Positions 876 to 24,606 are shown, counted from the stretch's first letter. The stretch is 26,200 nt of DNA from Promethearchaeota archaeon (GCA_011364975.1 RDOE01000047.1:1-26200), one strand, 5' to 3'. Program-made: numbers and translations. Notes: a model not told the origin generated them from the letters alone.

Positions 876-2180
876 TTATTCATTACCAATTAAGTATATT
901 AAACCTTCAGGAAGATACTCTCGCCAAGCTATATATTCGTGTCCTCCGGGATATTCTTCATAATAATATGTATATCCTTTTTCCTCTAACATATTTTTAA
1001 AATTTCGTACGTGAGGGATAGCCCTAGTTTCAAGATTTCCTACATTGATATAAAATTTGATAGGTAACCGTTCCTTCTTATAAAACTGTTTTGTTAACCA
1101 TTCTGTCTCATACTCATCTTCTTTAGTCCACCAGCGAACAAAATCCTTTCCGTAGAACTGTATTGAATATTGAAACCAATCATATCCAGGATACCATCCA
1201 TACCATCCAGATTGAGATAATACTTTTCTAAACAAATTTGGATATCTATATGCAATAAAGCTTGCTGTTAAACCTCCAGAACTGCTTCCTATCAAAACCC
1301 TATTCTCCGGATCAGTACTGATATTATATTTATCACGAACCCAAGGAAGTAATTCTTTTGCTACAAAATCCGCAAAAAGAGGATAACACGATAAGTCTTT
1401 ACCCCGTATAAATCCACTAAAATTATGGACAAATACCGAAATAACAGGTGGGATCTTATTTTCAGCTATTAAATTATCAAAAATAGTCGGAGTTTGGGTG
1501 AAATCAATAAATGCCTTACCATCAAACACAACTGAAAAATGATATGGTCCTTCAATTTTCTTATAATTATGAGGGAAATAAACCCAAATTTTTCTAGTTT
1601 CATTTAGCGATTTACTCTCAAAATCAAATTCCTTTAATGTACCTGGAACAATATAATGTCTAGGAAAAGTCCATCTTTGCGGTTTTGCATCTGGCATTTC
1701 TAAGACCGAATATTTTACTTCAAACATTTTTCCTTCTCTTCTGTATCTTTGAATAAAGTATTTTGAATTATGCGGATCTGGAACAAGGGTATCTCCATGA
1801 GCTATTAAGTTATCGTAAAATCTAGTATATCTTAATGTATTATTTATACTAAAAGTGTATATCGTTCGGGTTCCTTTTAATACCTTAAAACTTTTATAAA
1901 AAAGATTAGTACCATCCATTCTTTCACAAATATTATTGGATATTACATCATCTTGATCTTCTAAAGCGCAAATTACCACCACATTTTTTATGTTTTTATC
2001 GCCTTTATAAACAAATGTAACTAATTGGTGTTCAATATCAGTATCGATAGATTCAATAATAGGAGTTCCTTCTCTTTCAATTTTCGTCCAAAAATCCTTT
2101 AAAGCAATTGAATTTCCATATGACAATTTTACTTTAAGATTTTCTAGTATAGGGCTTTCTATGTATTGTTTGTTAATCAT
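876..2180 (-). CDS. Enterochelin esterase (Fes)-like alpha/beta hydrolase with N-terminal DUF3327-like domain
   Basis: Nucleophile elbow IGSSSGG, SQSG motif, C-terminal YPGGHEY (catalytic His), and Fes-like N-terminus TPIIE...VTFVYKG. ATG at 2180 is preferred over TTG at 2189. Confidence 0.82.
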   Translation of the reverse strand: MINKQYIESPILENLKVKLSYGNSIALKDFWTKIEREGTPIIESIDTDIEHQLVTFVYKGDKNIKNVVVICALEDQDDVISNNICERMDGTNLFYKSFKVLKGTRTIYTFSINNTLRYTRFYDNLIAHGDTLVPDPHNSKYFIQRYRREGKMFEVKYSVLEMPDAKPQRWTFPRHYIVPGTLKEFDFESKSLNETRKIWVYFPHNYKKIEGPYHFSVVFDGKAFIDFTQTPTIFDNLIAENKIPPVISVFVHNFSGFIRGKDLSCYPLFADFVAKELLPWVRDKYNISTDPENRVLIGSSSGGLTASFIAYRYPNLFRKVLSQSGWYGWYPGYDWFQYSIQFYGKDFVRWWTKEDEYETEWLTKQFYKKERLPIKFYINVGNLETRAIPHVRNFKNMLEEKGYTYYYEEYPGGHEYIAWREYLPEGLIYLIGNE

Positions 2181-2304
2181 CGATATCAATTTATTTTAAA
2201 TACTATATTAAATTCAGATGGTTATTTTTTATTCTATGATAAATAGACATTATAAATTAAGTTTTTTCCTTTTATGAAAGAATACACTATTGATTTTATT
2301 TTCA

Positions 2305-2386: not shown

Positions 2387-4870
2387 ATGACTGAATCGAA
2401 TAAACAATTAAAATTTAAAATTGCTACTCCACACGACCTTTCAGAACGCTCAAAATGGTTAAGAGAATATTACTTCAAAGGTGCCAATCGCGAATGGAAT
2501 AATCAATTTATGCCTTTTACCACTGGAATGGATTGGGATACCATATGGAGCGAATTGGATTATTACATTGTACCTGAAGTACATACTTATATAGGAATTA
2601 AGGGAAAAGGAGTTTTTGAAAGTACTTTTCGATCTATGGCACAAACTATAGATTCCTTACCTGAGAATTTTTGGAAATTATCCTTACCGGAACGACGGGC
2701 TATCTTTTTTAAGGAAGCGATGTTAAATTATATTCCCCAAGAGATTGTTGGTCCAAGCTTACTGGCGGGTTCAAGGTTTAATACTCAATTAAGCAAATGT
2801 TTTAATAAAGAAGAAGCTAAAAGCTTTTGGAAAAACATTCTTGAGGTTAGACATAAGTATTTTAAATTTCATAATTCCGGGTTTGGAAATGCAGGAGCAA
2901 CAGCAGGGCATTTTATTCCGGATTATGAAACCGTTATTAATAAAGGATTTAAATATATTTATGAACGAGCTAAACAGATTTATGAGGCTCTTAGTAAAAA
3001 AGAAAAGGCAAGTCCAAGAGGAGACGAGCTATTAGCTATAATGATCTCTGCTGAGGTACCCCGAGATTTAGCTAAAAAGTACGCTGAAGAATGCAGAAGG
3101 CTAAAAAATCAAACTAAGGATCCAAAAAGAGTAGAGGAGCTTGAACAAATGGCTAAGAATCTGGAACGAGTACCTTGGGAACCTGCTAAAACATTCTGGC
3201 AAGGTGTCCAAGCAATATGGTTAACCCATATGTTAATCATGGCAGAGGAATCATATCCGGGAGCTGGAACCTCCTTTGGTAGAACTGATCAACATCTCTG
3301 GCCATTATATAAAAAAGATGTAATTGAGGATAAAAGAATATCGAAAGAATTTGCTAAAGATATCTTGGGAAGCTTTTGGTTTCATTGTAACACCGCATAT
3401 GATGCTATGATTAAAATTGCTAAACAAGGTATAACGAGTGGTTTTGGGCAGCTAATGACTTTATCAGGTTGTGGTCCAAATGGTATAGATCTAACAAACG
3501 AATTGACATATACAATTCTCGAAGTTATAGATGAATGGTCCCCTATCTTAGAACCCAAACCAAATGTTAGATTGCATAGAAATTCACCAGAAAAATTATT
3601 GAATATCGTGGTTGATATGCTTTCACGTTCACAAGGAGCTCCTTTTTTAATCAATTTTGATGAAAGAAGTATTGCTGGTATGGTTGCCGAAGGAATTCCC
3701 GAGGAGGATGCATGGGATTACGCTTGTGTAGGGTGTCTTGAAAATACGATGCAAGGAAATGATCGTAGTGGTACAGTTAATTTAAACCCTAATTTAGCAA
3801 AAACAATTGAATTAGTGTTATGGAACGGAAAACTGATGCCTGGAAATGTAGCTAAACCATGGAATAAAGAAAGTGAACAATTCGGTCCAAAGACAGGAAA
3901 ACCTGAGGATTTTGAAAGCTGGGAGCAGTTCTTTAATGCTTGGAAGATGCAGATGGAGTATGCCATCAAATATTTAGCAGAGACGTACAACTTGACAGAA
4001 AAACTTCGGGCGGAGTATTTACCCACTCCATATGTATCCAGTATTGTTCGAGGATGCATAGAAAAGGGTTTAGATGTTAGAAATGGAGGACCTATGTTAG
4101 CGTTTGTAACAGTTGAAGGTGTTGGATATGCCACAACTGTTGACTCCCTTTTAGCAATAAAGCACATTGTATACGATACAAAGAAATATTCTATGACTGA
4201 ATTAAAAGATGCATTATTAAACAATTTTGAAGCAGATTATTCTATTCTCCAAACTATACTCATTAATAAAGCACCAAAATATGGCAATGATGAAGGGGAA
4301 GCTGATGAGCTAGCAAGAAGTATTATGGAATTCTGGTCAGGTGAAACTTGGAAATATAAAACTCCCACGGGTTTTCAATATCGTCCAGGAATGTTGTCTT
4401 GGAATTATTGGGCAGGTTCAGCTGCCAGTAAAACCCCAGCCACTCCTAATGGTAGGAAGAAAGGAACATTTTTATCTAACGCAATTTGTCCAACTGATGG
4501 TGTTGATATTAAGGGACCCACATCGGTTACCAATTCAGTGGGTACTGTCTTAGGTGGAAAAACAGAAGATGGAAAATATATTAACTACTTGCCCAATGGA
4601 GCAAGTCACACTATAACATTTAATCCTAGTATGCTAAGAAATCCAGAACATCAAGAAAAATTCAAAGCTTACTTGAAGGGCTATATCGAGAACGGAGGAA
4701 CTTGTTTACAAGTCAATATGCTGGATGCTGAAATGCTTCGAGATGCACAAAAACACCCAGAAAATTATCAAAACTTATTGGTACGAGTCACAGGGTATAA
4801 TGCCTATTTCAATGCAATTGGCAAGGAACTTCAAGATGAGATAATTGCAAGAGAAGCTCATAAAATTTAA
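2387..4870 (+). CDS. Glycyl radical enzyme (PFL2/eliminase-like superfamily member, substrate unknown)
   Basis: 827 aa. SFGRTDQ motif, Cys loop CVGCLE (Cys450/Glu452), TPNGRKKG, and C-terminal Gly loop LLVRVTGY (Gly803). Adjacent to an activase gene. Confidence 0.95.
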   Translation: MTESNKQLKFKIATPHDLSERSKWLREYYFKGANREWNNQFMPFTTGMDWDTIWSELDYYIVPEVHTYIGIKGKGVFESTFRSMAQTIDSLPENFWKLSLPERRAIFFKEAMLNYIPQEIVGPSLLAGSRFNTQLSKCFNKEEAKSFWKNILEVRHKYFKFHNSGFGNAGATAGHFIPDYETVINKGFKYIYERAKQIYEALSKKEKASPRGDELLAIMISAEVPRDLAKKYAEECRRLKNQTKDPKRVEELEQMAKNLERVPWEPAKTFWQGVQAIWLTHMLIMAEESYPGAGTSFGRTDQHLWPLYKKDVIEDKRISKEFAKDILGSFWFHCNTAYDAMIKIAKQGITSGFGQLMTLSGCGPNGIDLTNELTYTILEVIDEWSPILEPKPNVRLHRNSPEKLLNIVVDMLSRSQGAPFLINFDERSIAGMVAEGIPEEDAWDYACVGCLENTMQGNDRSGTVNLNPNLAKTIELVLWNGKLMPGNVAKPWNKESEQFGPKTGKPEDFESWEQFFNAWKMQMEYAIKYLAETYNLTEKLRAEYLPTPYVSSIVRGCIEKGLDVRNGGPMLAFVTVEGVGYATTVDSLLAIKHIVYDTKKYSMTELKDALLNNFEADYSILQTILINKAPKYGNDEGEADELARSIMEFWSGETWKYKTPTGFQYRPGMLSWNYWAGSAASKTPATPNGRKKGTFLSNAICPTDGVDIKGPTSVTNSVGTVLGGKTEDGKYINYLPNGASHTITFNPSMLRNPEHQEKFKAYLKGYIENGGTCLQVNMLDAEMLRDAQKHPENYQNLLVRVTGYNAYFNAIGKELQDEIIAREAHKI

Positions 4871-4884
4871 ATGAGGATTCAAGA

Positions 4885-5835
4885 ATGGCTACATCTAACC
4901 AAGCCCTTATCTTTCAGATTCAAAAAATGTCCACTGAGGATGGACCAGGAATTCGTACCACCATTTTTTTTAAACAATGTCCTTTAAAGTGCGTGTGGTG
5001 CCACAATCCAGAATCTATTCTAAAAAAGAAGCAATTAGAATGGCTCCAACATAAATGTATTGGATGTAAAACATGTTTAGAAACGTGTCCAAATGAAGCG
5101 TTATTTTTAGACGAAAATGGAATGCATATTGATCGAGATAAATGCGATTGTTGTGGAAGATGTGTTGAAGAATGTCCAAGTACTGCACTTCATATGTGGG
5201 GTGAAATTTGGAATTTAGATGACCTTTATTATGAAATCCAAAAGGATAAAGTGTATTATACAGAATCTAAAGGCGGAATTACTGTATCTGGGGGAGAACC
5301 AACCCTTCAAGAGGAATTTATAGTTGAATTCTTTAAAAAATGTAAAGAAAATGATATATCCACTGCTTTAGATACTTGTGGCATTACAAGTCGCGAAATT
5401 TACGAAAAAATCTTACCGTATACTGATTTAATTTTATTAGATATCAAGGAAATGGATAATGAAAAGCATAAGGAATTCACAGGAGTTTCTAATGAAACTA
5501 TATTAAAAAATGCAATTTGGATGGCGGAATATGTGGATAAAGAAAAGAAACGTCTCTGGATTAGAACTCCTTTAATCCCAAATTACACTGCAACAGAAGA
5601 GAATGTGCAAAACATAGGTAATTTTATTGTTAACGAATTACATAACATTCCAGAACGATGGGACCTCTTAAGTTTTAATAATTTATGTACTTCTAAATAT
5701 GAAAGATTAGATATGGAATGGCTTCTAAAAGATGTCCCTCTAATGAAAACAAGCGAAATAGAAAAATTATTTAACCTTGCCAAAAGCACAAAGACAAGGA
5801 ATATTCATTGGTCAGGATTAACCAAAAAAGACTAA
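4885..5835 (+). CDS. Glycyl-radical enzyme activating enzyme (radical SAM with ferredoxin-like insert)
   Basis: DGPGIRTTIFFKQCPLKCVWCHNPE (CxxxCxxC), auxiliary cluster motifs CIGCKTCLETCP and CDCCGRCVEECP, and SGGEP. Starts 14 nt after the GRE stop, with GAGG upstream. Confidence 0.95.
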   Translation: MATSNQALIFQIQKMSTEDGPGIRTTIFFKQCPLKCVWCHNPESILKKKQLEWLQHKCIGCKTCLETCPNEALFLDENGMHIDRDKCDCCGRCVEECPSTALHMWGEIWNLDDLYYEIQKDKVYYTESKGGITVSGGEPTLQEEFIVEFFKKCKENDISTALDTCGITSREIYEKILPYTDLILLDIKEMDNEKHKEFTGVSNETILKNAIWMAEYVDKEKKRLWIRTPLIPNYTATEENVQNIGNFIVNELHNIPERWDLLSFNNLCTSKYERLDMEWLLKDVPLMKTSEIEKLFNLAKSTKTRNIHWSGLTKKD

Positions 5836-5875
5836 GATTGATTTTATTATTATAAATATATAAAAAGTGGTAAAA

Positions 5876-6760
5876 ATGGGAAAGAAAAGTAATCAAATAC
5901 AATGGAATGAACAAGCTTCAGAAGAGGCAATTAATTTTACTCAACCAGATATAATGTTAAAATTAGTTTCAACGGTGGATGACCGGGGATGGCCTCATAT
6001 AACTATGATATCAAGCAATCGCTTGATAGGGAAAAAGGAATTAGTATGGGGACAATTCACCGAAGGGACAAGCAAAGAATATGTCAAGAAAAACCCAAAA
6101 CAGGGGATTTTTTACATGACCGCGGAAATGCCGTTTAAATACCTTCAAGTGAAAGCGGATTTTTCCTATACATCTAAAGAGGGTGAAGATTTGGAACATT
6201 TTAACAAATCCAACTTAATGCGTTATTTTACTTATGTTAGGGTTCATACTGCCTATTATAATACTATTAAAAAAATTACTCAAGTAAGAGATTTACCCTT
6301 AATGGGGGTAATTATGGGAATCTTGAAAAATATGATAGGAAAAGGAGGCGCTAAAACCAAATTGATTGAAAAAAGGTTAAATGTGATAGGATATAATCTA
6401 TTTAAAGCGCCGATTGCAGTTCGGGTCATTTCATATATAGATCCAGAAGACACTTATCCTCTAATGATTCCCTGTCTTCAACTTCAAGCAGCCGATCATA
6501 ATAGATTAGTATTTCCGCTAACTGTTGGAAAAGAAGATTTACTTAAAATACCTCAAAACATTAAAGTAGCAGTTTTTGGAATGAATTTTGATTTTGCTAA
6601 TCAGCTTGTAAAAGGAACTTTCACAGGGTTTAATAAATTCAGAGGAATCAAGTTTGGTGTAATTGAAATTGAAGAAATCTATAACGGAGCCCCTCCTTTA
6701 ATGGGAAAAATTTATCCTGAAATTCAAACGCAGCCCAAAGTTACAGAATTTCACCTTTAA
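5876..6760 (+). CDS. Tandem pyridoxamine 5'-phosphate oxidase-like (split-barrel flavin/F420-binding) protein
   Basis: Two related halves: LKLVSTVDDRGWPHITMISS...KKNPK and VRVISYIDPEDTYPLMIP...KVAVF...VKGTFTG. ATG at 5876 is preferred over GTG at 5867. Confidence 0.7.
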   Translation: MGKKSNQIQWNEQASEEAINFTQPDIMLKLVSTVDDRGWPHITMISSNRLIGKKELVWGQFTEGTSKEYVKKNPKQGIFYMTAEMPFKYLQVKADFSYTSKEGEDLEHFNKSNLMRYFTYVRVHTAYYNTIKKITQVRDLPLMGVIMGILKNMIGKGGAKTKLIEKRLNVIGYNLFKAPIAVRVISYIDPEDTYPLMIPCLQLQAADHNRLVFPLTVGKEDLLKIPQNIKVAVFGMNFDFANQLVKGTFTGFNKFRGIKFGVIEIEEIYNGAPPLMGKIYPEIQTQPKVTEFHL

Positions 6761-6861
6761 TCTCAGAAATTTAAACATAATAAAATTTTGAAACTTTTAT
6801 TTTTGATTTTATTTTTTCTTAACTAAAGTAGCATAATGTTTTGAATTTGGTTTGTTTTAAA

Positions 6862-8394
6862 ATGAGTGAACGAATGAATGTATTATTTATAATTACGGAT
6901 CAACATAGATCAGACCATCTTGGATGCTATGGAAACTCCATATTAAAAACTCCGAATATCGACAAGTTTGCTAACGAAAGTGTTAGATTTTCGAATGCTT
7001 TCTGTACAAATCCCATGTGTATGCCTAATAGAGCAACACTTCTAACAGGATATTATCCAAATGTGCATGGTGTGAGAAGTAACGGCATAAATTTACCTTG
7101 GGAGACACCAACTATAACCAAAACGCTCGCAAGTAGAGGATATCATACAATAAATATAGGAAAGATGCATTTAAACTATTGGACTCCACCGTATTCTCCC
7201 AGTGATAGAACAGCAGAAAGTTTTGATGATTGGAAAGTTGAAAACCCTAAAGGAAACCATTTAGCCCATGAGAATTTCCCGATGCCATATTATGGATTTC
7301 AAGAATGTGATCTGGTTTTAGGACACAGTTCTGCCTGTATCGGTCATTATCTTAATTGGTTAAAAGAAAGAGCACCCGATATAGCTAAAAGTGTTATAGA
7401 GCAACATAATACGGAACTGCCTATATTTCACCTTTTCAATGAAAATTATATTTCTGAAGAATTATACAACACTACTTATATTAAAGATCATACTATTTCT
7501 TTCTTAGAACGATATGTTCAAGGTAGATACGGGAATAAACCCTTCTTTTTACATTGTAGTTTCCCCGATCCTCATCATCCTGTGAGTCCACCGGGTAAAT
7601 ATAAGGATATGTATAGCCCAGAAGATATTGAATTACCTGCATCCTTTCATGATATTGAGAGACTCTACAAGCATCCTTATATGAAAACTCATTTAGAAAA
7701 CCCTCCTATGAGAGGAGGCTTACTTAGAGAAGAAACTGAACAAAATGTAAAAAGATTTATCGCATTAAATTATGGTGCAGTTTCATTAATTGATCATGCT
7801 GTAGGTAAAATTTTAGCATCATTAAATAAGTTGGGTTTATCTGAAAATACAATGGTCATATTCACTTCGGATCATGGCGATTATATGGGAGATCACGGTA
7901 TAACCTTGAAAGGGCCATCTCCCTTTAATGGAACTTTACAGATTCCATTGATTTGGAAAGTTCCGGGAATTTCCAAGCCAAGTATTTCTAATGCATTGAT
8001 TAGTTCAATAGACATTCCTAAAACCATCTTAGAATTATTAAGCATAAAAGAAAGATATCGACCACCTCAAATGCAGGGTTATGATATGACACCCGTTCTA
8101 AAGAATGAAAGTGAAGATGTAAGAGATTGTATCCTAATTACCGAAGACGAGGAGGTGGGACCTAAGGGACCATTATATACCCGATTATGCCATTTAATAA
8201 CTAAGGACTACAAACTAACAAAATATGCAGAACTTCCTCACTTTGGAGATATCTATCATCGAAAGAGGGATAAAGACGAATTGTATAATCTCTGGAATCG
8301 AAATAAGGATTTAAAAATGAAATTAGTAGACAAATTATTTCATGAGTATATGATTACAAGGAGCCGATTTCCTATCCGACAAGGTGGTACCTGA
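6862..8394 (+). CDS. Cys-type sulfatase family hydrolase (cytoplasmic, no signal peptide)
   Basis: NVLFIITDQHRSD, formylglycine motif CMPNRATLLTG, GKMH, PDPHHP and TSDHGD...KG. ATG at 6862 is preferred over TTG at 6841. Confidence 0.93.
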   Translation: MSERMNVLFIITDQHRSDHLGCYGNSILKTPNIDKFANESVRFSNAFCTNPMCMPNRATLLTGYYPNVHGVRSNGINLPWETPTITKTLASRGYHTINIGKMHLNYWTPPYSPSDRTAESFDDWKVENPKGNHLAHENFPMPYYGFQECDLVLGHSSACIGHYLNWLKERAPDIAKSVIEQHNTELPIFHLFNENYISEELYNTTYIKDHTISFLERYVQGRYGNKPFFLHCSFPDPHHPVSPPGKYKDMYSPEDIELPASFHDIERLYKHPYMKTHLENPPMRGGLLREETEQNVKRFIALNYGAVSLIDHAVGKILASLNKLGLSENTMVIFTSDHGDYMGDHGITLKGPSPFNGTLQIPLIWKVPGISKPSISNALISSIDIPKTILELLSIKERYRPPQMQGYDMTPVLKNESEDVRDCILITEDEEVGPKGPLYTRLCHLITKDYKLTKYAELPHFGDIYHRKRDKDELYNLWNRNKDLKMKLVDKLFHEYMITRSRFPIRQGGT

Positions 8395-8398
8395 AACT

Positions 8399-9289
8399 AT
8401 GATTTGGAAAACTAAAATTACTCAGATGTTAAACATACAATATCCATTGGTAATGGGTGCTTTTGGAGGTTGGGGAAAATCTGATTTTGCCCATTCCTTT
8501 TCCGAATCTGGAGGTTTAGGAACCATTGCTGCCTTGAATTTTCCAAAAATCGAGGATTTTAAAAATGACCTTCAGAAAATGAAAAACTTAACAGAAAAAC
8601 CTTTTGCGGTTAATCTATCCTTACCACACCATGCTTTAGACAAAGCTTATGAAGAAGAAGAAATACAAAAACGCCATTTAGCCTACATAGAGGCAGCATT
8701 ATCAAAGGAATGTAAGATATTTACCACTTCTGGCTATAAAGCATCATTTATAGAAAAAAGAGTACATGATGCAGGTGGAATTTGGATACATAAATGTACT
8801 TTATTAAATCATGCCCTTTCATCTGAGAGAGAAGGAGCAGATGCAGTCACGATATTAGGACTTGAAGGAACGGGTTTTAAAAATCCAATTTCAAATACCA
8901 CTTTAGTAAATATTACTGTTGCGAGAAAATACTTGAAAATCCCTATTATAGCTGCAGGAGGAGTAGGAGATGCGCGAGGATTTCTAGCCTCTTTAGCGAT
9001 GGGTGCAGAAGCAGTTTGCCTTGGAACCGCATTAATGACAACAGAGGAATGCCCAGTACCGGCTAGAGTCAAGCAAAAGTGGATTCAAACGGATATATAT
9101 ACGGAAGATTTTTATAAGCGAATTTATCACTACAATATTAAGAACTTTATGGCCCCATCCACTGCAATAGCACATTGTAAAGAAATTATTCCAATGAAAA
9201 AGTTAATTCATAATATAATAAACGAATCAGAGAAAATCCTAAAATCATGGGGATTCACCAATAATGAATTTCGTACATTAGGTTTATAA
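8399..9289 (+). CDS. Nitronate monooxygenase / FabK-like FMN-dependent oxidoreductase (paralog 1)
   Basis: YPLVMGA, GGLGTI, KPFAVNL, IHKCT and PIIAAGGVGDARG...MGAEAVCLGT. ATG at 8399 gives the same N-terminus (MIWKTKIT) as paralog 2 and lies 4 nt after the sulfatase stop. Confidence 0.85.
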   Translation: MIWKTKITQMLNIQYPLVMGAFGGWGKSDFAHSFSESGGLGTIAALNFPKIEDFKNDLQKMKNLTEKPFAVNLSLPHHALDKAYEEEEIQKRHLAYIEAALSKECKIFTTSGYKASFIEKRVHDAGGIWIHKCTLLNHALSSEREGADAVTILGLEGTGFKNPISNTTLVNITVARKYLKIPIIAAGGVGDARGFLASLAMGAEAVCLGTALMTTEECPVPARVKQKWIQTDIYTEDFYKRIYHYNIKNFMAPSTAIAHCKEIIPMKKLIHNIINESEKILKSWGFTNNEFRTLGL

Positions 9290-13147: not shown

Positions 13148-14005
13148 TTGATCATTGATATGCACATGCATCCATTTTGTCGTGAAGCGCATTATGGAAA
13201 TAAAAAGTTAATTATAAATGCTATGGCTGGAGAAAATTCAAGGAAATTATTAGCCACAAAGCGTTATGTTAATGCTATAATGGAAAAATATACGATCGAA
13301 GATTACATTAAAATAATGAATAAATTTAAAATTGATAAAGCAGTTATCGTGTCTCTTAATGTGAAAACTGCGTATGGTTTTTATATGGTTAATAATGATG
13401 ACATTGCGGATTTTGTGTCTAAATATCCTGAACGTTTCATAGGATTTGGATGTATAGATGTGCCTGCTCAAAATGCCATAGATGAACTTGATTATGCCAT
13501 CAATTCGCTTAGCTTGAAAGGGATAAAATTAGTTCCACCTGCGCAAAAGTTTGATTTATCTAATAAAAAGTTTGATCCATTATGGGCCAAAATGATAGAT
13601 TCAAATATTCTACTATGGACACATGGCGGTCATCAACAATCTTTTATCGGATCAGACGCTAAATACGGCCATCCTATGTTAATAGATGATTTAGCGTTAA
13701 GATTCAAGGATTTAATTATTATAATTGGTCATATGGGTGTTCCTTGGATGTGGGAGGCATGGTCTGTTACAGCTAGACATGAAAACGTGTATGTTGATAT
13801 TTCTTCTCATCCTAATTTATATAAATGGTTTCCATTTGATGCTTTTAAATCTTATAACATAACTAATAAACTTCTTTTTGCAACCGATTATCCTCTAGTT
13901 CATTATAGTGAAATTTTTTCAGAATTTGACAAAATAAATATAGATGATGGATTTAGAAATAAAATCTTAGGAGAAAATGCTCAAAAATTATTAAAATTTT
14001 CATAA
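13148..14005 (+). CDS. Amidohydrolase_2-type TIM-barrel metal-dependent hydrolase
   Basis: IIDMHMH, PERFIGFG, KGIKL, THGGH, GHMG, VYVDIS, FATDYP and ILGENA motifs. Confidence 0.9.
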   Translation: MIIDMHMHPFCREAHYGNKKLIINAMAGENSRKLLATKRYVNAIMEKYTIEDYIKIMNKFKIDKAVIVSLNVKTAYGFYMVNNDDIADFVSKYPERFIGFGCIDVPAQNAIDELDYAINSLSLKGIKLVPPAQKFDLSNKKFDPLWAKMIDSNILLWTHGGHQQSFIGSDAKYGHPMLIDDLALRFKDLIIIIGHMGVPWMWEAWSVTARHENVYVDISSHPNLYKWFPFDAFKSYNITNKLLFATDYPLVHYSEIFSEFDKINIDDGFRNKILGENAQKLLKFS

Positions 14006-14057
14006 ATTTTCAATTTATAAAGCGATAATAAGAATGAAAGTTTTTATTTGAGTTAAT

Positions 14058-14945
14058 ATGATTTGGAAAACTAAAATCACCGAGATGACCAAAACTAAAT
14101 ATCCTTTAGTTATGGCAGCATTTGCTAGATGGAGCTCAACGGAATTTGCTGCTGCATTTTCAAATGCAGGAGGATTGGGTATAGTTACCGCATTAAATTA
14201 CGCTAAAGATACATTTAGAAAAGAATTACAAAAAATGAAATCATTAACGGATAAACCATTTGGAGTGAATATAACAGTCACACCACCAAGAAATTATTAT
14301 AATGAAGATAAATTCAAAGAAGAGGATTATCTTAAATATGTTGAAATTGCTCTTAGTGAAGGGATTACAATTTTTACTAGTTCCGCTTATCAAGCTCCGT
14401 TCATAGGAAAGAGAGTCCATGAAGCAGGATGTTATTGGTTTCATAAATGTTCATTAATAAGACATGCCTTATCTGCAGAGAGATTAGGCGCAGATGCAAT
14501 AACAATCATTGGTCTAGAAGCAGCGGGATATAAAAATCCATACATGCACACTACGTTAGTAAATCTTACTGTAGCAAAGGAAATATTAAAAGTACCTATA
14601 ATAGCAGCGGGAGGTTTTGGCGATGCGCGTGGAATAATTGGTGCGCTAGTCATGGGTGCTGAAGCAGTTTGTTTAGGTACAGCAATATTAACTACAAAAG
14701 AAAGTCCATTAGATCAACTTAGAAAAAATGAATGGTTAAATACGGATATCTTAACAGAAGAATATCATAGAGCTCTTTATCATATGACTTTGAAGGGTAC
14801 TCGTGTTCCTTCGCCTGCAGTGTCCTTTCAAAAAGAAGAGAAGCCATTGAAAATGTTCCTTGAAAGTTTAATGAAAGAAGCAGAAATAATTTTGAAATCC
14901 TATGGATTTGCGAGTGAGGAATTTAATACTTTACAAAAGATATAG
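14058..14945 (+). CDS. Nitronate monooxygenase / FabK-like FMN-dependent oxidoreductase (paralog 2)
   Basis: YPLVMAA, AGGLGIV, KPFGVNI, FHKCS and PIIAAGGFGDARG...MGAEAVCLGT. Colinear with the 8399-9289 gene. Confidence 0.85.
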   Translation: MIWKTKITEMTKTKYPLVMAAFARWSSTEFAAAFSNAGGLGIVTALNYAKDTFRKELQKMKSLTDKPFGVNITVTPPRNYYNEDKFKEEDYLKYVEIALSEGITIFTSSAYQAPFIGKRVHEAGCYWFHKCSLIRHALSAERLGADAITIIGLEAAGYKNPYMHTTLVNLTVAKEILKVPIIAAGGFGDARGIIGALVMGAEAVCLGTAILTTKESPLDQLRKNEWLNTDILTEEYHRALYHMTLKGTRVPSPAVSFQKEEKPLKMFLESLMKEAEIILKSYGFASEEFNTLQKI

Positions 14946-14949
14946 TAAT

Positions 14950-14958
14950 AAAAAAAAA
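14950..14958 (-). terminator. Oligo-T terminator for the minus-strand amidohydrolase
   Basis: A9 on the plus strand (T9 on minus) between the convergent stops at 14945 and 14967. Confidence 0.4.
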
Positions 14959-14966
14959 TATTTTAT

Positions 14967-16712
14967 CTATATTTCAATCGGAATTAATTCTACTTTTTCT
15001 AATTTTTTAATCTTGTTTACTTTAGGATGTTTGATTATATGACCTCGAATTAAAACCATAGAAACTTTACCTAAAGCATCAATATTTTCTAAGGGATTCT
15101 CTTGAACGATTTGTAAATCCGCAGATTTTCCTACTTCAATGCTTCCGGTGATCTTATCAATTCCAATCACTTCCGCTGTGTTCTTAGTAGCAAAATATAT
15201 TGCTTCCTGGGCACTCATATTAGTATATCTCAAATAATACTTCAATTCTTTCCAAACTCCATAATGAGTTGAATATGGGACAGATGCATCTGTACCACAT
15301 GCGAACCTTATATTATTTTGATATGCTTTTTGCAAACAGCGTATCATCCCTTTTTCAATAAGTTTAGCATTTTCAAACTTTATGGGCGTAATTTTAGTAT
15401 CTTTATAGTGCAGAGTTGCTAATGCCATACCAGCAGAGATAGTAGGAGTAACAGCCGTATAACCACGTAAAGATTTGGGGTTACTTTTAAAGAAAGGGAT
15501 CAGATTATCGGGGATATCAGCACCATGTTCTATGGAATCAACTCCTCCTTCTAAAGCTTCTTTCATTCCATCTGTGCTTTCGCAATGTGTTGCTACTAAT
15601 AAATTAGCACGATGAGCCTCATAACAGGCGGTTTCAATCTCTTCAACCGTCATTTGAGGACGACCGGCTTCTCCGATCATTTTTGCATCCATTACACCTC
15701 CCGTTGAAAGAATCTTTATGTGATCTACCTCTTCTCTAGCATTCTGTCTTATACGCTTTCTAATTTCCCCTTTATCATCTGCTATAAATCCAAGCATTCC
15801 ACCATGACCTCCTGTAGGACATAAACCTAAGCCCGAAACCAATAACCTCGGACCAATAAATCTTCCCCCTTCAATTTTTTTTCTTAACTTAACATCAAAA
15901 TAAAAGGGGTCCCCCATAGTTCGAAGTGTGGTTACACCTGCATTTAATGCGTTTATCACATTAGATTTCATCCTGTTTTTTACTAATATAACCCCAATCG
16001 GGGTAGCAAGAATTTTCATCAACTTTTTCATAACTGAGTCACTTAAATTCATGATCTTCATCGGTTTTCCATTTCCAAAGAGATGACAATGGGCATTGAT
16101 TAGTCCTGGAAGAATAAAGCTTCCTTTGAGATCAATTTTTTTATAGTCAGAAGGAATAATAATATCGGTCTGAGTACCAATTTTTTCAATTAAACCGGGA
16201 GTTAGCCCACTTTCTACAAGATTTTTGATTAAAATAACACCATTAGAAATAATTTTACTATCTTTATTTCCATCAATAATATTGCAATTTATTAAAGCGA
16301 GATTGGCTTTCGCAACTTTTTCTCGATACTTTACTTTTTTAATAGACGATATGATAATTATCATAAAAATGATCTCAAGTGATATTCCTAAAATTATTAT
16401 GAGCCAATACCAAAAAATAGGCATCCAGCTATTATTTAAGTGAGCAATATCTAAGGTTAGATCATACATTTTAAAGCCGAAAAATCCAAGTAAATCCAAA
16501 ATACCTAAAGGAATACCGATAAAAGGAATTATCCAAGGATAAAAGTTCAATAATCCAATTATTCCATATGAAAGAGTTCCTAACACATCAGTTAAGTTCC
16601 CATACGTAATCCAAGCTAATAATGAAATTAGAACTGTTAAAAAAACAAAAAAGGTAATATAGGATAAAAAGAAGTTCGAATTTTTGCTATTATCTATCAC
16701 TAATCTTCCCAA
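14967..16712 (-). CDS. Amidohydrolase (Xaa-Pro dipeptidase-like metal-dependent hydrolase) with an N-terminal membrane domain
   Basis: LPGLINAHCH, GVTTLRTMG, TGGHG, DHIKILSTGGV, ATHCES, DSIEHG, GTDA and GSIEVGKSADL. The first ~125 aa contain about three hydrophobic segments. Confidence 0.88.
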   Translation of the reverse strand: MGRLVIDNSKNSNFFLSYITFFVFLTVLISLLAWITYGNLTDVLGTLSYGIIGLLNFYPWIIPFIGIPLGILDLLGFFGFKMYDLTLDIAHLNNSWMPIFWYWLIIILGISLEIIFMIIIISSIKKVKYREKVAKANLALINCNIIDGNKDSKIISNGVILIKNLVESGLTPGLIEKIGTQTDIIIPSDYKKIDLKGSFILPGLINAHCHLFGNGKPMKIMNLSDSVMKKLMKILATPIGVILVKNRMKSNVINALNAGVTTLRTMGDPFYFDVKLRKKIEGGRFIGPRLLVSGLGLCPTGGHGGMLGFIADDKGEIRKRIRQNAREEVDHIKILSTGGVMDAKMIGEAGRPQMTVEEIETACYEAHRANLLVATHCESTDGMKEALEGGVDSIEHGADIPDNLIPFFKSNPKSLRGYTAVTPTISAGMALATLHYKDTKITPIKFENAKLIEKGMIRCLQKAYQNNIRFACGTDASVPYSTHYGVWKELKYYLRYTNMSAQEAIYFATKNTAEVIGIDKITGSIEVGKSADLQIVQENPLENIDALGKVSMVLIRGHIIKHPKVNKIKKLEKVELIPIEI

Positions 16713-16814
16713 TTTTTTAGTTTGTAAGTTTTAAGAAATTTTAATAATTAATAGATTTAAATTATGGTTCTAATATAAAAATAGTCTTTATTTTAGCGAT
16801 AAACCTAAAACAAC

Positions 16815-16886
16815 AAACCTTTATAACTTCGAATAAACCGGTTAGGATTTAAAAATGGAATAATTCGAATATCTTCTGTTCGAATA
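16815..16886. promoter_or_regulatory. Putative BRE/TATA (AAACC-TTTATAA) followed by three TTCGAATA repeats
   Basis: TATA-like TTTATAA at 16820-16826. TTCGAATA occurs at 16828, 16864 and 16879, and the palindrome AACCGGTT at 16836-16843. Confidence 0.4.
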
Positions 16887-16986
16887 ATATTTATTAATTA
16901 AATTTCAATTATATTATCCAATAATTTTGAAATCATGAAATATTTAACAGGAAATACGTTAAGAAATTAAAAATAAGGTGAAATTT

Positions 16987-17478
16987 ATGGCTTTAACTGG
17001 TGAAAAAGTAGGGATTCCATCTGTTGATGAAGCTCCCATGATTGTTATGGCTCGTTTTAAACAGCCTGTTGCTGGAATTTTATCAATAATTATAGTATTT
17101 ATTATTAGTTGGATTACTTGGCTAGTATTTTTTGATCCACGTTGGCATAATCCCTATCCCACACAAGATATGGAAATTACAGCTTGGGCAACTGTTATTG
17201 GGGGATTTGGTTTGATAGGTGTTGTTTGGGCAATTTGGTTTGAAAATTGGTCTAAAAAATTTTCTCAATGGATGAACTTTTTCTTTAGATTTTTGTTAGT
17301 TATCCTAATAGGAACCATAAGCTTTCTTGGTTATTATCTGCTCTCACCCATTTTTTTTGGAAACACTACTGATTTCTGGCGAATGAATCCAACACCTTTC
17401 ACACTCTGGTTTTTGTGGATTGAGATTTTGTTTGCTTATGTTTGGAGAAAATGGCCAATATATAAAGCTGTTGGGTGA
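16987..17478 (+). CDS. Small Trp-rich integral membrane protein of unknown function (about 4 TM)
   Basis: Four hydrophobic segments, with similar Trp motifs (WFENW, WRKWP) ending TM2 and TM4. A GGTGA SD at 16977-16981 supports ATG 16987. Its stop overlaps the SD of the next gene. Confidence 0.7.
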   Translation: MALTGEKVGIPSVDEAPMIVMARFKQPVAGILSIIIVFIISWITWLVFFDPRWHNPYPTQDMEITAWATVIGGFGLIGVVWAIWFENWSKKFSQWMNFFFRFLLVILIGTISFLGYYLLSPIFFGNTTDFWRMNPTPFTLWFLWIEILFAYVWRKWPIYKAVG

Positions 17479-17483
17479 TTTAG

Positions 17484-19034
17484 TTGTATAGGGCCGGTGA
17501 TTATTCTATCCCTCAAGAGTTTTCCTGGACTGGAGATTGGGCTACTCGACGTGCTTTATTAACTCCAAATCGAGAAGCAATTTATGATCATGTCCAAAAT
17601 ATTCGATACACATTTGCTGATCTTAATAATCGAGCTAATAAATTAGCAAGAGTACTGCTAGATTATGAAATATCTAAAGGTGATCGTGTTGCCATTTTTG
17701 CTACAAATATCATTGAATTTATCGATTTATTCTTAGCAACAGGAAAAATTGGAGCTATCTTGGTGCCATTTAATGTGAGATTATCATCCCAAGAAATACT
17801 TTATTTAATCAAAAAGACAAAACCCTCACTGTTATTTTATGAGGATAAATTTGCTCTGAAAATTGATGAAATAAAGAATCAAAAGCTAATTAATAATCAT
17901 ATTGTTATGGGTAAAGAATCACTCCAAGATGATCCCTCTGTTTATAATTTAACGCAGAAACAAACTGATTCTGGTATTGAAAGACCGATTATCAATTTGG
18001 AAGATCCTCACCTTATCTTATTCACAGGAGGTACAACGGGGTTACCCAAAGGGGCAATTCTACCTCATAGATTAATCTACTGGAATTCAATTAACACTAT
18101 TCTATCTTGGAATTTAAAACCAGATGACATTCAACCATTGCTATTTCCTTTATTTCATACAGGAGGATGGAATGTCCTACTGGTGCCATTTTACCATCTC
18201 GGAGCTAAAACCATATTAATGGGAGATTTTAATCCTGAAGAGACTCTAAAGGTTATTGAGAAAGAAAAGTGTACAATAGTAATAGGCGTGCCTACTATGT
18301 TTCATATGATGGCAAATTCTTCTCAATTCCATACATCTAACATTGATTCTGTAAGAGTATTTATCTCAGGAGGTGCACCATGTCCCGTTGCTATAATGGA
18401 GCACTATTGGGAAAAAAATAAATATTTTAAGATGGGATATGGACTAACTGAAGTTGGTCCAAACAATTTTTATCTTCCTGAAGAAATTATAAAGAAAAAA
18501 CCCACTTCTGTTGGATTACCAGTTTTACATTGCGATATGAAAATTGTAAACACTGAAACTAATAAAGTTGTTAAACAAGGAAATGTGGGGGAATTATTAC
18601 TTAAAGGACCTCATATTTTTACTGGATACTGGGATGAACCTGAAGAATCTAAAAAAACTATAGAGCATGACGGTTGGGTTCACACAGGTGATCTTGCTAT
18701 GCAAGACGAGCAAGGATACTATTATATCGTTGGTAGAAAGAAAGAAATGTTTATTAGTGGGGGAGAAAACGTATATCCTGTAGAAATAGAAGAATTATTA
18801 TTTAAACATCCTGCAATTGATTTAGCTGCTGTTATCGGTGTTCCTGATGAAAAGTGGGGTGAAGTAGGAAAAGCATTTTTAACCCTTAAACCAAATAAAA
18901 CCATTATTGAAGATGAGATTAGAAATTACCTTATTGACCGCCTTGCTAAATATAAAGTTCCTAGATATTATGAAATACGTGATTCTTTACCAACAAGCGC
19001 CACAGGTAAAATCCTAAAAAGGGAATTATCATAG
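17484..19034 (+). CDS. Acyl-CoA synthetase / AMP-dependent ligase (long-chain fatty acid-CoA ligase / MenE-like)
   Basis: FTGGTTGLPKG, PLFHTGG, GYGLTE, HTGDL, GRKKEMFISGGENVYP and SATGKIL. A GGTGA SD precedes the TTG start. Confidence 0.93.
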   Translation: MYRAGDYSIPQEFSWTGDWATRRALLTPNREAIYDHVQNIRYTFADLNNRANKLARVLLDYEISKGDRVAIFATNIIEFIDLFLATGKIGAILVPFNVRLSSQEILYLIKKTKPSLLFYEDKFALKIDEIKNQKLINNHIVMGKESLQDDPSVYNLTQKQTDSGIERPIINLEDPHLILFTGGTTGLPKGAILPHRLIYWNSINTILSWNLKPDDIQPLLFPLFHTGGWNVLLVPFYHLGAKTILMGDFNPEETLKVIEKEKCTIVIGVPTMFHMMANSSQFHTSNIDSVRVFISGGAPCPVAIMEHYWEKNKYFKMGYGLTEVGPNNFYLPEEIIKKKPTSVGLPVLHCDMKIVNTETNKVVKQGNVGELLLKGPHIFTGYWDEPEESKKTIEHDGWVHTGDLAMQDEQGYYYIVGRKKEMFISGGENVYPVEIEELLFKHPAIDLAAVIGVPDEKWGEVGKAFLTLKPNKTIIEDEIRNYLIDRLAKYKVPRYYEIRDSLPTSATGKILKRELS

Positions 19035-19044
19035 GTGCTTTATT

Positions 19045-20064
19045 ATGAATGTTCGACATGTAGGTTTAGAATCATGGGGGATATATCTCCCAAAGGAGCG
19101 CCATACAAGCGATTATATAGCAAAAGGAACAGGAATACCGAAAGAAATTATTGAAGATAAGTTTGGTCTTAAAAGTAAGACGGTTCCAGGACCATACGAT
19201 CACACAGTCGCAATGGGTGCAAAAGCAAGTTTTCAAGCCTTGAAACGAGCAGCTTTAACCCCAGAAGATATTGATCTTATAATTTGGGCCGGAGAAGTCT
19301 ATGCAGAAAGACCTTTAATGACTTATGGTATTAAACTTCAACAGCTATTAGGTAATCCTTCTAATCCGTGGGCATTTGATATCAATCAAAGATGTGGAAC
19401 TTTTTTGGTGGGTATGCTACTTGCGAAAAGTTTGATTCAAACAGAATTTGGAATAAATAGAGTATTATTAGCTAGTGGTTATAGAAATTCGGATTTAATT
19501 AATTATAAAAATCAACGTTCGCGATTTATGATAAGTCTAGCAGCAAGTGGAGTTGCTGCTGTTCTTAAAGGAGACTATAAAACTAACGAGATATTAGGGA
19601 TTTCTGCAATTTCAGATGGTCGATTTGCGGATGATGTATACGTGCCTGCAGGAGGTACGGTTCATCCAATATCAGCAGAAGCAATTAAGGAAGAGCTTAT
19701 ATATTTAGATGTGCCAGATCCTGAGGGGTTAAAAGATAGGTTGGATCAATATAGTATGAATTCTTTTGTTAGAGTTATTGAAGATGCTTTACATAAATCA
19801 GGATACACAAAAGAAGATATTGATTATTTAGCACTTTTACATATGAAAAGGAGCGCATTTGAATTTGTAGCCAAAGCAGTGGGCGTCGACCCATATAAAC
19901 AAGCAACTTATTTTGAAGATATTGGCCATAATGGCCAGAATGACGCCATTCTTTCTTTAGAATATGGATTAAACGATGGAAAAATAAAGAAAGGGGATAT
20001 AGTTGTACTCACTGCAGCCGGAATCGGATGGGCCTGGAATGCTGGAGTTATTAAATGGGGATAA
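19045..20064 (+). CDS. 3-oxoacyl-ACP synthase III (FabH)-like thiolase-fold condensing enzyme
   Basis: GIYLP, FDINQRCGTF (catalytic Cys), LALLHMKRS (His), IGHNGQND and KKGDIVVLTAAGIGWAWNA. Starts 10 nt after the ligase stop. Confidence 0.88.
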   Translation: MNVRHVGLESWGIYLPKERHTSDYIAKGTGIPKEIIEDKFGLKSKTVPGPYDHTVAMGAKASFQALKRAALTPEDIDLIIWAGEVYAERPLMTYGIKLQQLLGNPSNPWAFDINQRCGTFLVGMLLAKSLIQTEFGINRVLLASGYRNSDLINYKNQRSRFMISLAASGVAAVLKGDYKTNEILGISAISDGRFADDVYVPAGGTVHPISAEAIKEELIYLDVPDPEGLKDRLDQYSMNSFVRVIEDALHKSGYTKEDIDYLALLHMKRSAFEFVAKAVGVDPYKQATYFEDIGHNGQNDAILSLEYGLNDGKIKKGDIVVLTAAGIGWAWNAGVIKWG

Positions 20065-23525: not shown

Positions 23526-24080
23526 TTAAAGAGCTGTCCAATAAACTGCTCTTCCTTTCTTATCTGCGCGTTTAACTTTATTAGAACTTTCTAGATCTGA
23601 CATCACTTTCCAGATTTGTGAATTATTCAACTTAAAGTACTTCCTTAATTCCGGAGTCGACATTTCAGTACAATTTAATAAATTTAAGATCAACCGTTTT
23701 ATTTCTTCCACAGTATCATTATCTGATTGGTCTTCAGGTTCAATTCCCTCAAGCTCAATTTCCATTTCATCTACAATTCTAGACGCTATTCTATTTAATT
23801 GTTTAATATTATTCTCAATTCCTTGTGGTTGCATAAATAGGCAACATAATTCTAAATCTTTAGGAAAAGCTACAATATAGAAACTATCATAAAGAATTGC
23901 CCTAGGTTTTTTACCAGCATTTCCGCCGCGAAATGCTAAATAGAAGTTCATAGCAAAATCATCAAGGTTCATAATATTAGTACTGCTACCATATTCTTTC
24001 TTCCACTTTAAAAAAGGACCATCAATCATGTCAAATCCTATTAAAGCCGCTCCAAATAATTCTTTTTCATCAAAATGCAA
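23526..24080 (-). CDS. Longin/uDENN-like domain fused to a C-terminal winged helix-turn-helix
   Basis: N-terminal AALIGFDMIDGPFL (FDxxxGP hairpin) with an apparent beta-beta-alpha-beta-beta-beta-alpha pattern, an acidic linker, then RLILNLL...MSTPELRKYFKLNNSQIWKVMSDLESSNKVKR...GRAVYW. The TTG start overlaps the GTPase gene by 11 nt. Confidence 0.65.
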   Translation of the reverse strand: MHFDEKELFGAALIGFDMIDGPFLKWKKEYGSSTNIMNLDDFAMNFYLAFRGGNAGKKPRAILYDSFYIVAFPKDLELCCLFMQPQGIENNIKQLNRIASRIVDEMEIELEGIEPEDQSDNDTVEEIKRLILNLLNCTEMSTPELRKYFKLNNSQIWKVMSDLESSNKVKRADKKGRAVYWTAL

Positions 24081-24606
24081 CTTCTTTTAACCTCTTTCTT
24101 ATTGAAATTTTATTTAATTCTTTTCTAATAATATCCATCAACTTAAGTCGTTGACTAGGGTCGATAGCAGTAAGACCGTAAGTTTTAATATTAAGTATCT
24201 CCTCAACTCTTCTAGGATCCATTCTTCCATCATTTCTTTGCAGATCTTGTTTATTCGCAATCGCAATTATAGGACAATCTTTTCCAACAAATTGGGCCGC
24301 ATAATTAATTAATTCTCGGGATCTTAAAACGTTACGAGGTGAAGAATCAGTGACTATAAAAAGTAGGTCTGATCCTAAAAGATGATCGCTACTATAGGTC
24401 TTAAGGTAACCGCCTTGACCACCAAAATCCCATACTTTCACTGTAAAATCATCTATCTTTACCGTTTTCAAATCAAAACCATGGGTGGGAAGATATAGCC
24501 TGTCGATTGTATGTTTGGAAAGCAATTTTAACATTGTAGTTTTTCCCACGGCTGGTGCTCCAATTATCGATACTTTTAATAGTTTTTGTAATTCAGAACT
24601 TAACAT
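24070..24606 (-). CDS. Ras-superfamily small GTPase (Arf/Rab-like, Asgard type)
   Basis: G1 GAPAVGKT, G2 LPTHG, G3 WDFGGQ, G4 ANKQD and G5-like LTAI; 178 aa. Confidence 0.93.
   Translation of the reverse strand: MLSSELQKLLKVSIIGAPAVGKTTMLKLLSKHTIDRLYLPTHGFDLKTVKIDDFTVKVWDFGGQGGYLKTYSSDHLLGSDLLFIVTDSSPRNVLRSRELINYAAQFVGKDCPIIAIANKQDLQRNDGRMDPRRVEEILNIKTYGLTAIDPSQRLKLMDIIRKELNKISIRKRLKEVAF

Follow-up and report, generated by a model that had tools for sequence, protein, structure and literature searches.

Glycyl radical enzymes (GREs) carry out hard bond cleavages in anaerobic organisms, and the assignment of each new clade has brought a new pathway to light, as for choline, hydroxyproline, sulfonates and anhydro-sugar phosphates. 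A glutamate two residues past the loop cysteine is a trait of the eliminases among them. The accessory subunits of 4-hydroxyphenylacetate decarboxylase and the X-succinate synthases are small iron-sulfur proteins, and to our knowledge none of the Cys-x-Glu eliminases has a split-barrel partner. Literature searches pairing glycyl radical enzyme with split barrel or with PNPOx found no paper. Here, a stretch of 26,200 nucleotides (nt) from a Promethearchaeota archaeon (GCA_011364975.1, RDOE01000047.1:1-26200), referred to as the window at its full length, was analysed for a three-gene locus encoding a GRE, its radical SAM activase and a protein of the PNPOx/FMN-binding split-barrel fold, hereafter X. 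The analysis indicates that the trio is a real GRE system, widely conserved and uncharacterised, whose predicted accessory subunit would be of a new type. The preferred reading, with a probability of roughly 0.62, is a three-gene glycyl-radical module in which X would most likely be a stoichiometric subunit of the GRE and the mechanism would be of the eliminase type.

The Cys-x-Glu eliminases used for comparison were DhaB1/DhaB2 of Clostridium butyricum (1r8w), propanediol dehydratase (5i2g, 9rco), HypD (6vxc), CutC (5fau), IseG/IslA (5ymr, 7kq3) and HpsG (6lon). The GRE of the window shares with them the ten-stranded barrel, the Gly loop, the Cys-x-Glu loop, the equivalent of His164 and an activase with a ferredoxin insert. 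Its model aligned to them with Z scores of 35.5-35.8 over about 710 residues (5i2g, 9rco, 6vxc, 1r8w), 35.2 (CutC) and about 32 (IseG, IslA, HpsG). The 4-hydroxyphenylacetate decarboxylase (2y8n) and the benzylsuccinate and (1-methylalkyl)succinate synthases (4pkf, 9o8u) resemble the locus in that a GRE is encoded with a conserved small binding protein, the binding being predicted in the present case. Unlike the iron-sulfur subunits of those enzymes, X has one cysteine and a flavin-type split-barrel fold, and their GREs are more distant (Z 29-31). X itself resembles the PNPOx/FMN-binding split barrels (Swol_0183, 3in6; Desulfovibrio FMN-binding protein, 1axj; HupZ, 7kpz; F420 reductases, 3f7e and 5jab) over residues 8-144 with Z scores of 11.9-14.3. 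However, it differs from them as a fused two-barrel protein with a conserved C-terminal tail predicted to dock, confined to GRE operons and, in this tier, lacking a Pfam match.

The open reading frames (ORFs) on the forward strand lie head to tail in the order GRE, activase, X, sulfatase and NMO/FabK-like protein (Table 1). The initial annotation had described the first three genes at 2387-6760 as a GRE with an unusual aromatic N-terminus and a C447-V-G-C450-L-E452 loop in place of an adjacent Cys-Cys pair, a ferredoxin-insert activase and a two-domain PNPOx-like protein. It had given spacings of 14 and about 40 nt and noted the absence of adjacent shell genes, small iron-sulfur subunits and aldehyde/alcohol dehydrogenases. 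All of this was recovered on re-examination, the second barrel of X being read from predicted strands. The ORFs extend over 2387-4870, 4885-5835 and 5867-6760. The first two are 14 nt apart, and the activase stop (5835) is followed after 40 nt by the ATG of X at 5876, which is the start used by the 294-amino-acid (aa) homologues. Window ORFs of at least 80-90 aa yielded no domain of a microcompartment shell, a small iron-sulfur subunit or an aldehyde/alcohol dehydrogenase. From X to the sulfatase ATG at 6862 there are about 100 nt including three T-tracts, and the sulfatase/NMO-like gap is 4 nt.

Table 1. Features of the GRE locus and its neighbours, in window coordinates.
Feature	Position	Strand	Basis
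GRE, 827 aa, member of a distinct X-associated clade	2387..4870	+	PF02901, PF01228; AF2
GRE residues 24-122, clade-specific N-terminal segment, predicted X docking surface	2456..2752	+	Co-fold interface residues 24-86, 117-122
His175, aligned to glycerol dehydratase His164	2909..2911	+	HMMER alignment to 1r8w; invariant in alignment A2
ESYPGAGTSFGR loop, residues 288-299, two-residue insertion, clade signature	3248..3283	+	
Cys loop VGCLENTMQGNDRSGTV, residues 448-464, Cys450 and Glu452	3728..3778	+	V448-T454 invariant in 28/28 A2 rows
RPGMLSWNYW hairpin, residues 666-675, clade signature; N673 contacts X in the model	4382..4411	+	
Glycyl radical loop RVTGYNAYF (Gly803)	4784..4810	+	
GRE-activating radical SAM enzyme, 316 aa	4885..5835	+	TIGR02494, Fer4 families
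X, two-barrel PNPOx/FMN-binding-fold protein, 294 aa from ATG 5876 (ORF opens GTG 5867)	5876..6760	+	AF2, Foldseek, VIA
X conserved C-terminal tail, residues 273-297 of P0003, predicted to dock on GRE	6683..6757	+	
Cys-type sulfatase, CMPNR at 7018-7032, lineage-specific neighbour	6862..8394 (ORF from 6841)	+	PF00884 2.1e-47, 162 bits
NMO/FabK-like FMN TIM-barrel oxidoreductase, 4 nt past the sulfatase	8399..9289 (ORF from 8384)	+	PF03060 8.4e-35
Divergent enterochelin-esterase-like esterase, possible accessory neighbour	876..2189	-	PF00756 2.2e-31

Membership of the GRE superfamily could be established from a PFL-like domain (PF02901, 9.7e-128, 428 bits), a Gly_radical domain (PF01228, 1.2e-21, 77.6 bits), the RVTGYNAYF loop, the invariant Cys450 and the activase directly downstream. 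The AF2 model (pLDDT 85.8) revealed the canonical GRE fold with Z of about 35. In alignment A2, H175, V448-G-C450-L-E452-N-T, R800 and T802-G803-Y-N-A were invariant in all 28 clade rows. C450, E452 and H175 align with C433, E435 and H164 of 1r8w, which places the enzyme with the Cys-x-Glu 1,2-eliminases. The GRE would carry an eliminase-like catalytic set, the substrate-side chemistry being suggested by these conserved residues. Two further loop residues were considered and set aside: Cys447 is conserved only in tier 1 (Loki-type) and, as tier 2 (Thor-type) has Pro or Ile there, is unlikely to be a second catalytic cysteine, and Arg460, which might have bound an anion throughout the clade, is replaced by Thr or Leu in its bacterial members. 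The aromatic N-terminus WLREYYFKGANREWNNQFMPFTTGMDWDTIW occupies residues 24-54. The whole segment 24-122 was unmatched by Pfam, NCBIfam and PDB sequence alignments, all of which start near residue 170.

The GRE scored below every NCBIfam equivalog cut-off, with 82-383 bits against cut-offs of 994-1150 (HpsG, HpfG, HypD, CutC, PflD, the indoleacetate and 4-hydroxyphenylacetate decarboxylases, and pyruvate formate-lyase); against the equivalog cut-offs of 1000-1100 the scores were 339-383 bits. It also fell below that of TIGR01774, the PFL2/glycerol dehydratase subfamily (420.3 bits against 678.2, matched only from residue 171). The closest solved relative was the B12-independent glycerol dehydratase (1r8w; 325 bits, about 33% identity), again only from residue 173. 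In the alignment to it H281/S282 are replaced by A/G and D447 by V464, while Y339 and S642 fall in gaps. H281, S282, D447 and Y339 are taken by us to be diol-binding residues, and the GRE, which in addition has loop motifs of its own, does not read as a glycerol/1,2-propanediol dehydratase. By fold, propanediol dehydratase, HypD, glycerol dehydratase, Archaeoglobus fulgidus PFL2, CutC, PflD/YbiW and HplG were tied at Z 34-36, against 29-31 for benzylsuccinate synthase (BSS) and MasD and 26 for pyruvate formate-lyase.

An exhaustive phmmer search with the GRE returned 7238 proteins at E <= 0.001. Full-length matches including the N-terminus were restricted to about nine 50%-identity cluster representatives (29-55% identity), beyond which scores drop to about 350 bits and matches begin near residue 170. 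The NCBIfam scan took 61 of the 131 full-length representatives among 150 listed. Only one of the 61 (P0171, HpsG) passed an equivalog cut-off, and the seven full-length clade representatives scanned all matched no NCBIfam family at E <= 1e-180 and remained below the TIGR01774 cut-off. A FastTree phylogeny of 75 rows (13 tier-1 rows including the window, 13 tier-2 rows, 8 representatives, 5 same-genome paralogs and 36 of the other representatives) separated 34 clade rows from 41 other PFL2-type rows, the 5 paralogs among them, by a branch of length 0.43 with a support of 100. The clade signatures are ESYPGxGxSxGR with its two-residue insertion, VGC(L/I)EN(T/S), G(Y/M)LSWN and R(V/I)TGYNA(Y/F)F, and loose forms of three signature motifs were present in 108 of 117 full-length relatives of P0130. 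Source names in the clade cover Loki-, Thor-, Hermod-, Njord- and Jord-type Asgard archaea, Nezhaarchaeales, Dehalococcoidia, Abyssubacteria and Desulfobacterales. These results support a separate, uncharacterised clade, distinguished by active-site loops of its own and by an N-terminal segment that has diverged. The initial proposal of such a clade therefore holds, as the GRE lies below all NCBIfam cut-offs, is equidistant in fold (Z about 35) from the solved eliminases and lacks the diol-binding residues; clustering with a characterised family and retention of its substrate residues, which would have spoken against the proposal, were not observed. Five GRE-like proteins inside or beside the clade (P0131, P0133, P0134, P0139, P0247) have lost the Cys loop (e.g. 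SGFHETT, ISGGAIA), and most also lack the glycyl radical loop and the C-terminal domain; judging from these losses they may be inactive derivatives.

The activase matched the Pfam Radical_SAM and Fer4 families, and NCBIfam TIGR02494 with 318.7 bits against a cut-off of 174.35. It carries a CX3CX2C motif (C32, C36, C39) and a two-cluster ferredoxin-like insert (C58-C68, C87-C97).

Assessment of X by AF2 (pLDDT 84.9) revealed two beta-barrel halves with helices between them. Residues 8-144 matched FMN-binding split barrels with a VIA Z score of 14.3 to 3in6 (Foldseek E 1.8e-6, probability 1.00), followed by 14.0 for HupZ, 12.9 for an F420 reductase and 11.9 for the Desulfovibrio FMN-binding protein. 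A PDB-sequence profile search with X returned HupZ alone, weakly (E 0.0018). The second barrel is modelled from seven predicted strands (185-273) and from the match of both halves to a one-barrel bacterial homologue. X of this tier had no Pfam or NCBIfam match. The split-barrel fold of PF01243 is present over residues 8-144, and a Thor-type homologue (L071:10390-11217) passed that family at 31.6 bits against a cut-off of 28.1. The Thor-type X family aligned to window X with an hhalign probability of 100 (E 1.6e-43). A total of 394 X homologues could be collected, and the best 120 of the 394 were 69-99% identical, almost all 294 aa long and from Asgard archaea wherever named. D38, H44, T46, N51, S69, K78, Q79, K96, R119, Y120 and Y123 are invariant polar residues of the first barrel. 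Both tiers retain the Ser/Thr-x-Lys...Asn-Pro stretch (FTEGTSK...NPKQG), in our reading the family's flavin-phosphate motif, and the cofactor of X is probably a flavin or a deazaflavin. In the model of X alone the C-terminal tail is of low confidence across 276-297, with pLDDT below 50 at 276-289, and its P276, P284 and K291 are invariant.

The association of X with the GRE was evaluated by co-folding X residues 4-297 with a GRE cut, for reasons of size, to residues 1-702 and so lacking the glycyl radical domain. The three runs scored 0.82, 0.82 and 0.79, compared to 0.00 for the best of three controls with unrelated proteins. In calibration, 116 of the 157 solved complexes scored this high, as did 2 of the 215 mismatched pairs; these figures are approximate here since our own alignments were used. 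The runs shared at least 86% of contacts with a partner pLDDT of at least 86. The predicted interface consists of GRE residues 24-86 and 117-122, which include the aromatic N-terminus, 340-345, 673, 678 and 681, and of X residues 64-67, 116-124, 172-178, 241-246 and 273-297. The GRE loop 342-351, of low confidence in the model of the GRE alone, lies in the interface region, as does the X tail that is disordered in the model of X alone. No solved structure of a GRE bound to a split-barrel protein is known to us, so that memorisation by the predictor is unlikely to explain the pass. The co-fold supports a model in which X would bind the divergent N-terminal segment of the GRE through its conserved C-terminal tail.

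Conservation of the trio was evaluated in 50 genome-contig loci found via X, 44 of them named as Asgard lineages and 6 as 'uncultured archaeon'. An activase stood upstream of X in every locus with at least 1100 nt of room (43/43), and at no more than 200 nt in 39/43. Among loci with at least 3700 nt of room, the GRE was contiguous with activase-X in 18/35 and within 10 kb in 28/35; the available upstream sequence (up to 10 kb) contained no GRE in 7/35. The inserts of 4-9 kb between GRE and activase-X (L019, L024, L035, L017, L049, L050, L052, L033, L059) encode beta-oxidation-type thiolase, hydroxyacyl-CoA dehydrogenase and enoyl-CoA hydratase, a molybdopterin oxidoreductase with iron-sulfur subunit, an extra NMO-like gene, an Amidohydro_3 amidohydrolase, MFS_2, GH127, GH4, TetR and a SIR2-like protein.

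A survey of 400 Asgard genomes, which are interrelated and in many cases incomplete, scored the GRE at E <= 1e-130 with two candidates per genome and X by profile A3 at E <= 1e-15. The GRE was detected in 182 genomes and X in 177 (both 164, GRE only 18, X only 13, neither 205); the discordant genomes are soft because only two GRE candidates were scored in each. The clade is present in about 41-45% of the genomes sampled. In 13 Thor-type or deep Loki-class loci of the 45-50% GRE identity tier, tblastn placed an X of 23-32% identity beside the GRE or activase in nine. The other four have an ORF of 274-288 aa in its place, one of which passes PF01243. The order was GRE-activase-X with overlapping stop and start codons in 8/13 and GRE-X, with no activase in the locus, in 5/13. 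Past X, the Thor-type loci L065-L072 encode a GNAT acetyltransferase, a protein of about 170 aa without Pfam match and an MFS transporter, and several have a divergent 520-750-aa protein without Pfam match upstream of the GRE. No common substrate theme emerged among the genes of the inserts and of these downstream regions.

The arrangement also extended to bacteria. Twenty metagenome loci carried a GRE 83-91% identical to one that NCBI assigns to a Dehalococcoidia metagenome-assembled genome, and GRE-activase-X was present in 13/13 of these Dehalococcoidia-like loci with room. X stood beside none of the unrelated GREs in eight loci. The split-barrel gene is therefore kept next to GRE homologues across Loki-type, Thor-type and Dehalococcoidia-like loci, which was the neighbourhood check proposed at the outset. 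The Dehalococcoidia-like X (L077-L095, e.g. L079:9325-9759; ORFs of 140-164 aa read from the preceding stop) is a single barrel that retains the tail motif. It matches the N-terminal part of the Asgard X and its last strands plus tail, and because of this match the two-barrel Asgard form looks like a putative duplication or fusion.

In the preferred reading, the activase would place the radical on Gly803, from which it would move to Cys450. Cys450 would then abstract a hydrogen from a hydroxylated substrate, and Glu452 and His175 would assist a 1,2-elimination as in the Cys-x-Glu eliminases, judging from the conserved residues. The X tail and a first-barrel loop would dock on the N-terminal segment of the GRE and on loops 340-345 and 673-681, as in the co-fold, and X, which probably carries a flavin or deazaflavin, may contribute a redox step or control entry to the active site. 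The new radical chemistry and flavin/F420 binding proposed in the initial annotation can only be inferred. Its interpretation was supported in part: the gene is conserved with the GRE, but instead of the free product-processing enzyme or electron donor that it had suggested for X, the co-fold points to a bound subunit. A more far-reaching version, which is doubtful, treats GRE and X as a composite radical-flavin enzyme in which an interface flavin or deazaflavin would trade electrons or hydride with a substrate-derived intermediate, in an ancient module common to Asgard archaea and anaerobic bacteria; if true, it would perform a net redox reaction (e.g. reductive or oxidative elimination) performed by no known GRE. 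X as a free flavin- or F420-dependent enzyme acting on the GRE substrate or product (e.g. reducing an unsaturated or imine product), a pathway partner and no stable subunit, is unlikely. Its split-barrel fold is common to the F420/FMN reductases MSMEG_3380, Rv2074 and Ddn, and operon linkage alone does not require binding; however, the co-fold (0.82 against 0.00 for controls) runs through a conserved, otherwise disordered tail, and the tail motif is retained in the one-barrel bacterial X. Somewhat less likely still is a cofactor-less structural or regulatory subunit that would stabilise or gate the GRE or aid its activation, comparable to the small subunits found in 4-hydroxyphenylacetate decarboxylase or benzylsuccinate synthase. 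The predicted interface, the lack of a Pfam match in this tier and the existence of flavin-free split barrels would suit such a role, whereas the many invariant polar residues lining the first barrel, and the Ser/Thr-x-Lys...Asn-Pro stretch of both tiers with its presumed flavin-phosphate role, argue for a cofactor.

The tightest link of X is to the activase, within 200 nt at the frequency given above, and is kept even in loci whose GRE lies 4-10 kb or more away. Together with the similar fold of the Desulfovibrio FMN-binding protein, this would suit an X that served solely to supply low-potential electrons to the activase iron-sulfur clusters in place of a flavodoxin. That role is nevertheless improbable, as X directly follows the GRE in the five of 13 deep-branching loci without an activase, and the genome of the window holds at least eight GRE loci beyond that of the window (contigs C159, C200, C123, C14, C130, C51, C75, C20) and three activases above the TIGR02494 cut-off, plus a fragment on C14, against a single-copy X. 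One X among so many GREs and activases indicates that it works with one particular GRE and has no general part in activation. It is very improbable that the GRE is an alkyl-/benzylsuccinate synthase (Ass/Bss) or a true pyruvate formate-lyase, even though sources name clade members 'pyruvate formate-lyase' or 'formate C-acetyltransferase' and the available part of a Hermodarchaeota paper (PMC8163825) labels single-Cys Asgard GREs at 29-33% identity as Ass/Bss. TIGR01255 (pyruvate formate-lyase) gave 81.7 against a cut-off of 994, and the V-G-C-L-E loop has a single cysteine and no adjacent Cys-Cys pair. BSS alpha (169 bits) and MasD (205 bits) scored below glycerol dehydratase (325 bits) in the PDB search, their fold Z scores are 29-31 against 35 for the eliminases, and the window ORFs include no apparent genes for small beta or gamma subunits.

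Several observations weigh against the module with a GRE-bound X and an eliminase-type mechanism. The GRE was cut to residues 1-702 for co-folding, the controls were unrelated proteins and not paralogous GREs, and the activase-X pair stood outside the comparison. Conservation in the GRE interface columns (0.50) does not exceed that in the remainder of the N-terminal region (0.58). The seven of 35 loci without an upstream GRE (up to 10 kb) keep activase and X paired, which fits an activase-linked role equally. Window-tier X has no Pfam match, the Thor-type homologue alone passing PF01243, and HupZ-like and PilZ-like split barrels bind other ligands than flavin. Cys-loop Arg460 is not kept in bacterial clade members, and the sulfatase and oxidoreductase downstream of X are missing from the Thor-type and bacterial loci.

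If true, a GRE subunit with a flavoprotein fold would represent a new type of accessory component. The clade is routinely mislabelled pyruvate formate-lyase or read as a hydrocarbon-activating enzyme, so that metabolism reconstructed for the archaea most closely related to eukaryotes may be wrong at this point. The outcome is a defined three-protein biochemical target together with a candidate sulfatase link. In the available parts of related papers, GREs appear only among the references of one on uric acid (PMC12507026), and the GRE clade of this locus is not treated in one on microcompartments (PMC12747264) or in the FESNov paper (PMC10849945).

The label 'orphan', which the operon had been given initially, is not supported, since a sulfatase and an FMN oxidoreductase directly downstream had been overlooked. 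The sulfatase could be assigned to type I (formylglycine) by PF00884, by C60-M-P-N-R64 and by an anaerobic sulfatase maturase in the genome (contig C167; TIGR03942 412 bits against a cut-off of 349). Its closest PDB matches were generic (4upi and others), those of the oxidoreductase were PA1024 (2gjl, 6.6e-35) and also FabK, and neither set gave a substrate clue. Of the 50 loci, 27 have an ortholog of the sulfatase, 22 one of the NMO-like gene and 21 both; the orthologs stand immediately downstream of X or immediately upstream of the GRE. The pair is a Loki-lineage add-on and does not define the module, because both genes are absent from Thor-type and bacterial loci; in this lineage it hints at a sulfated substrate. 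Among the literature matches listed, judged by title or the start of the abstract, no glycyl radical enzyme-sulfatase system was found. The order of these genes varies: in L012 (11209-12090) an NMO-like gene lies directly 3' of X with no sulfatase between, and in L026, L034, L036 and L041 the sulfatase is upstream of the GRE, with the NMO-like gene between the two in L034. A 60%-identical copy of the divergent esterase was found upstream of the activase in L022, L023 and L073.

By eye, an AT-rich TTATAAAT element could be observed about 20 nt 5' of the X ATG (window 5840-5875), and the three T-tracts 3' of the X stop lie at 6761-6861. These could be a possible internal archaeal promoter and terminator, in which case the sulfatase-NMO pair would be a separate transcription unit. 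In a scan for bacterial-type signals, promoter-like sites numbered 36 where 33.6 were expected and terminator-like sites 4 where 4.0 were expected; the scan is uninformative because the consensus is bacterial and the host archaeal. A search of sequencing runs listed 20 of DNA, from six studies of soil and of marine, estuary and mangrove sediment, and none of RNA.

The host could be recognised as an Asgard archaeon from the window genes (archaeal Nre, Arf-family GTPase, DUF2070) and the source names of homologues; the G+C content of the window is about 32%. Elsewhere in the window, 13148-20064 contains a second NMO-like gene (14058-14945) between two amidohydrolase genes (13148-14005; 14967-16712, minus strand), followed by a 166-aa protein of no assigned family, an acyl-CoA synthetase-type gene (17484-19034) and a FabH-like gene (19045-20064). 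On the minus strand at 23526-24606, the 178-aa small GTPase of the Arf family, one of the eukaryote-like signature genes typical of Asgard archaea, overlaps by 11 nt with a downstream 184-aa ORF without Pfam match.

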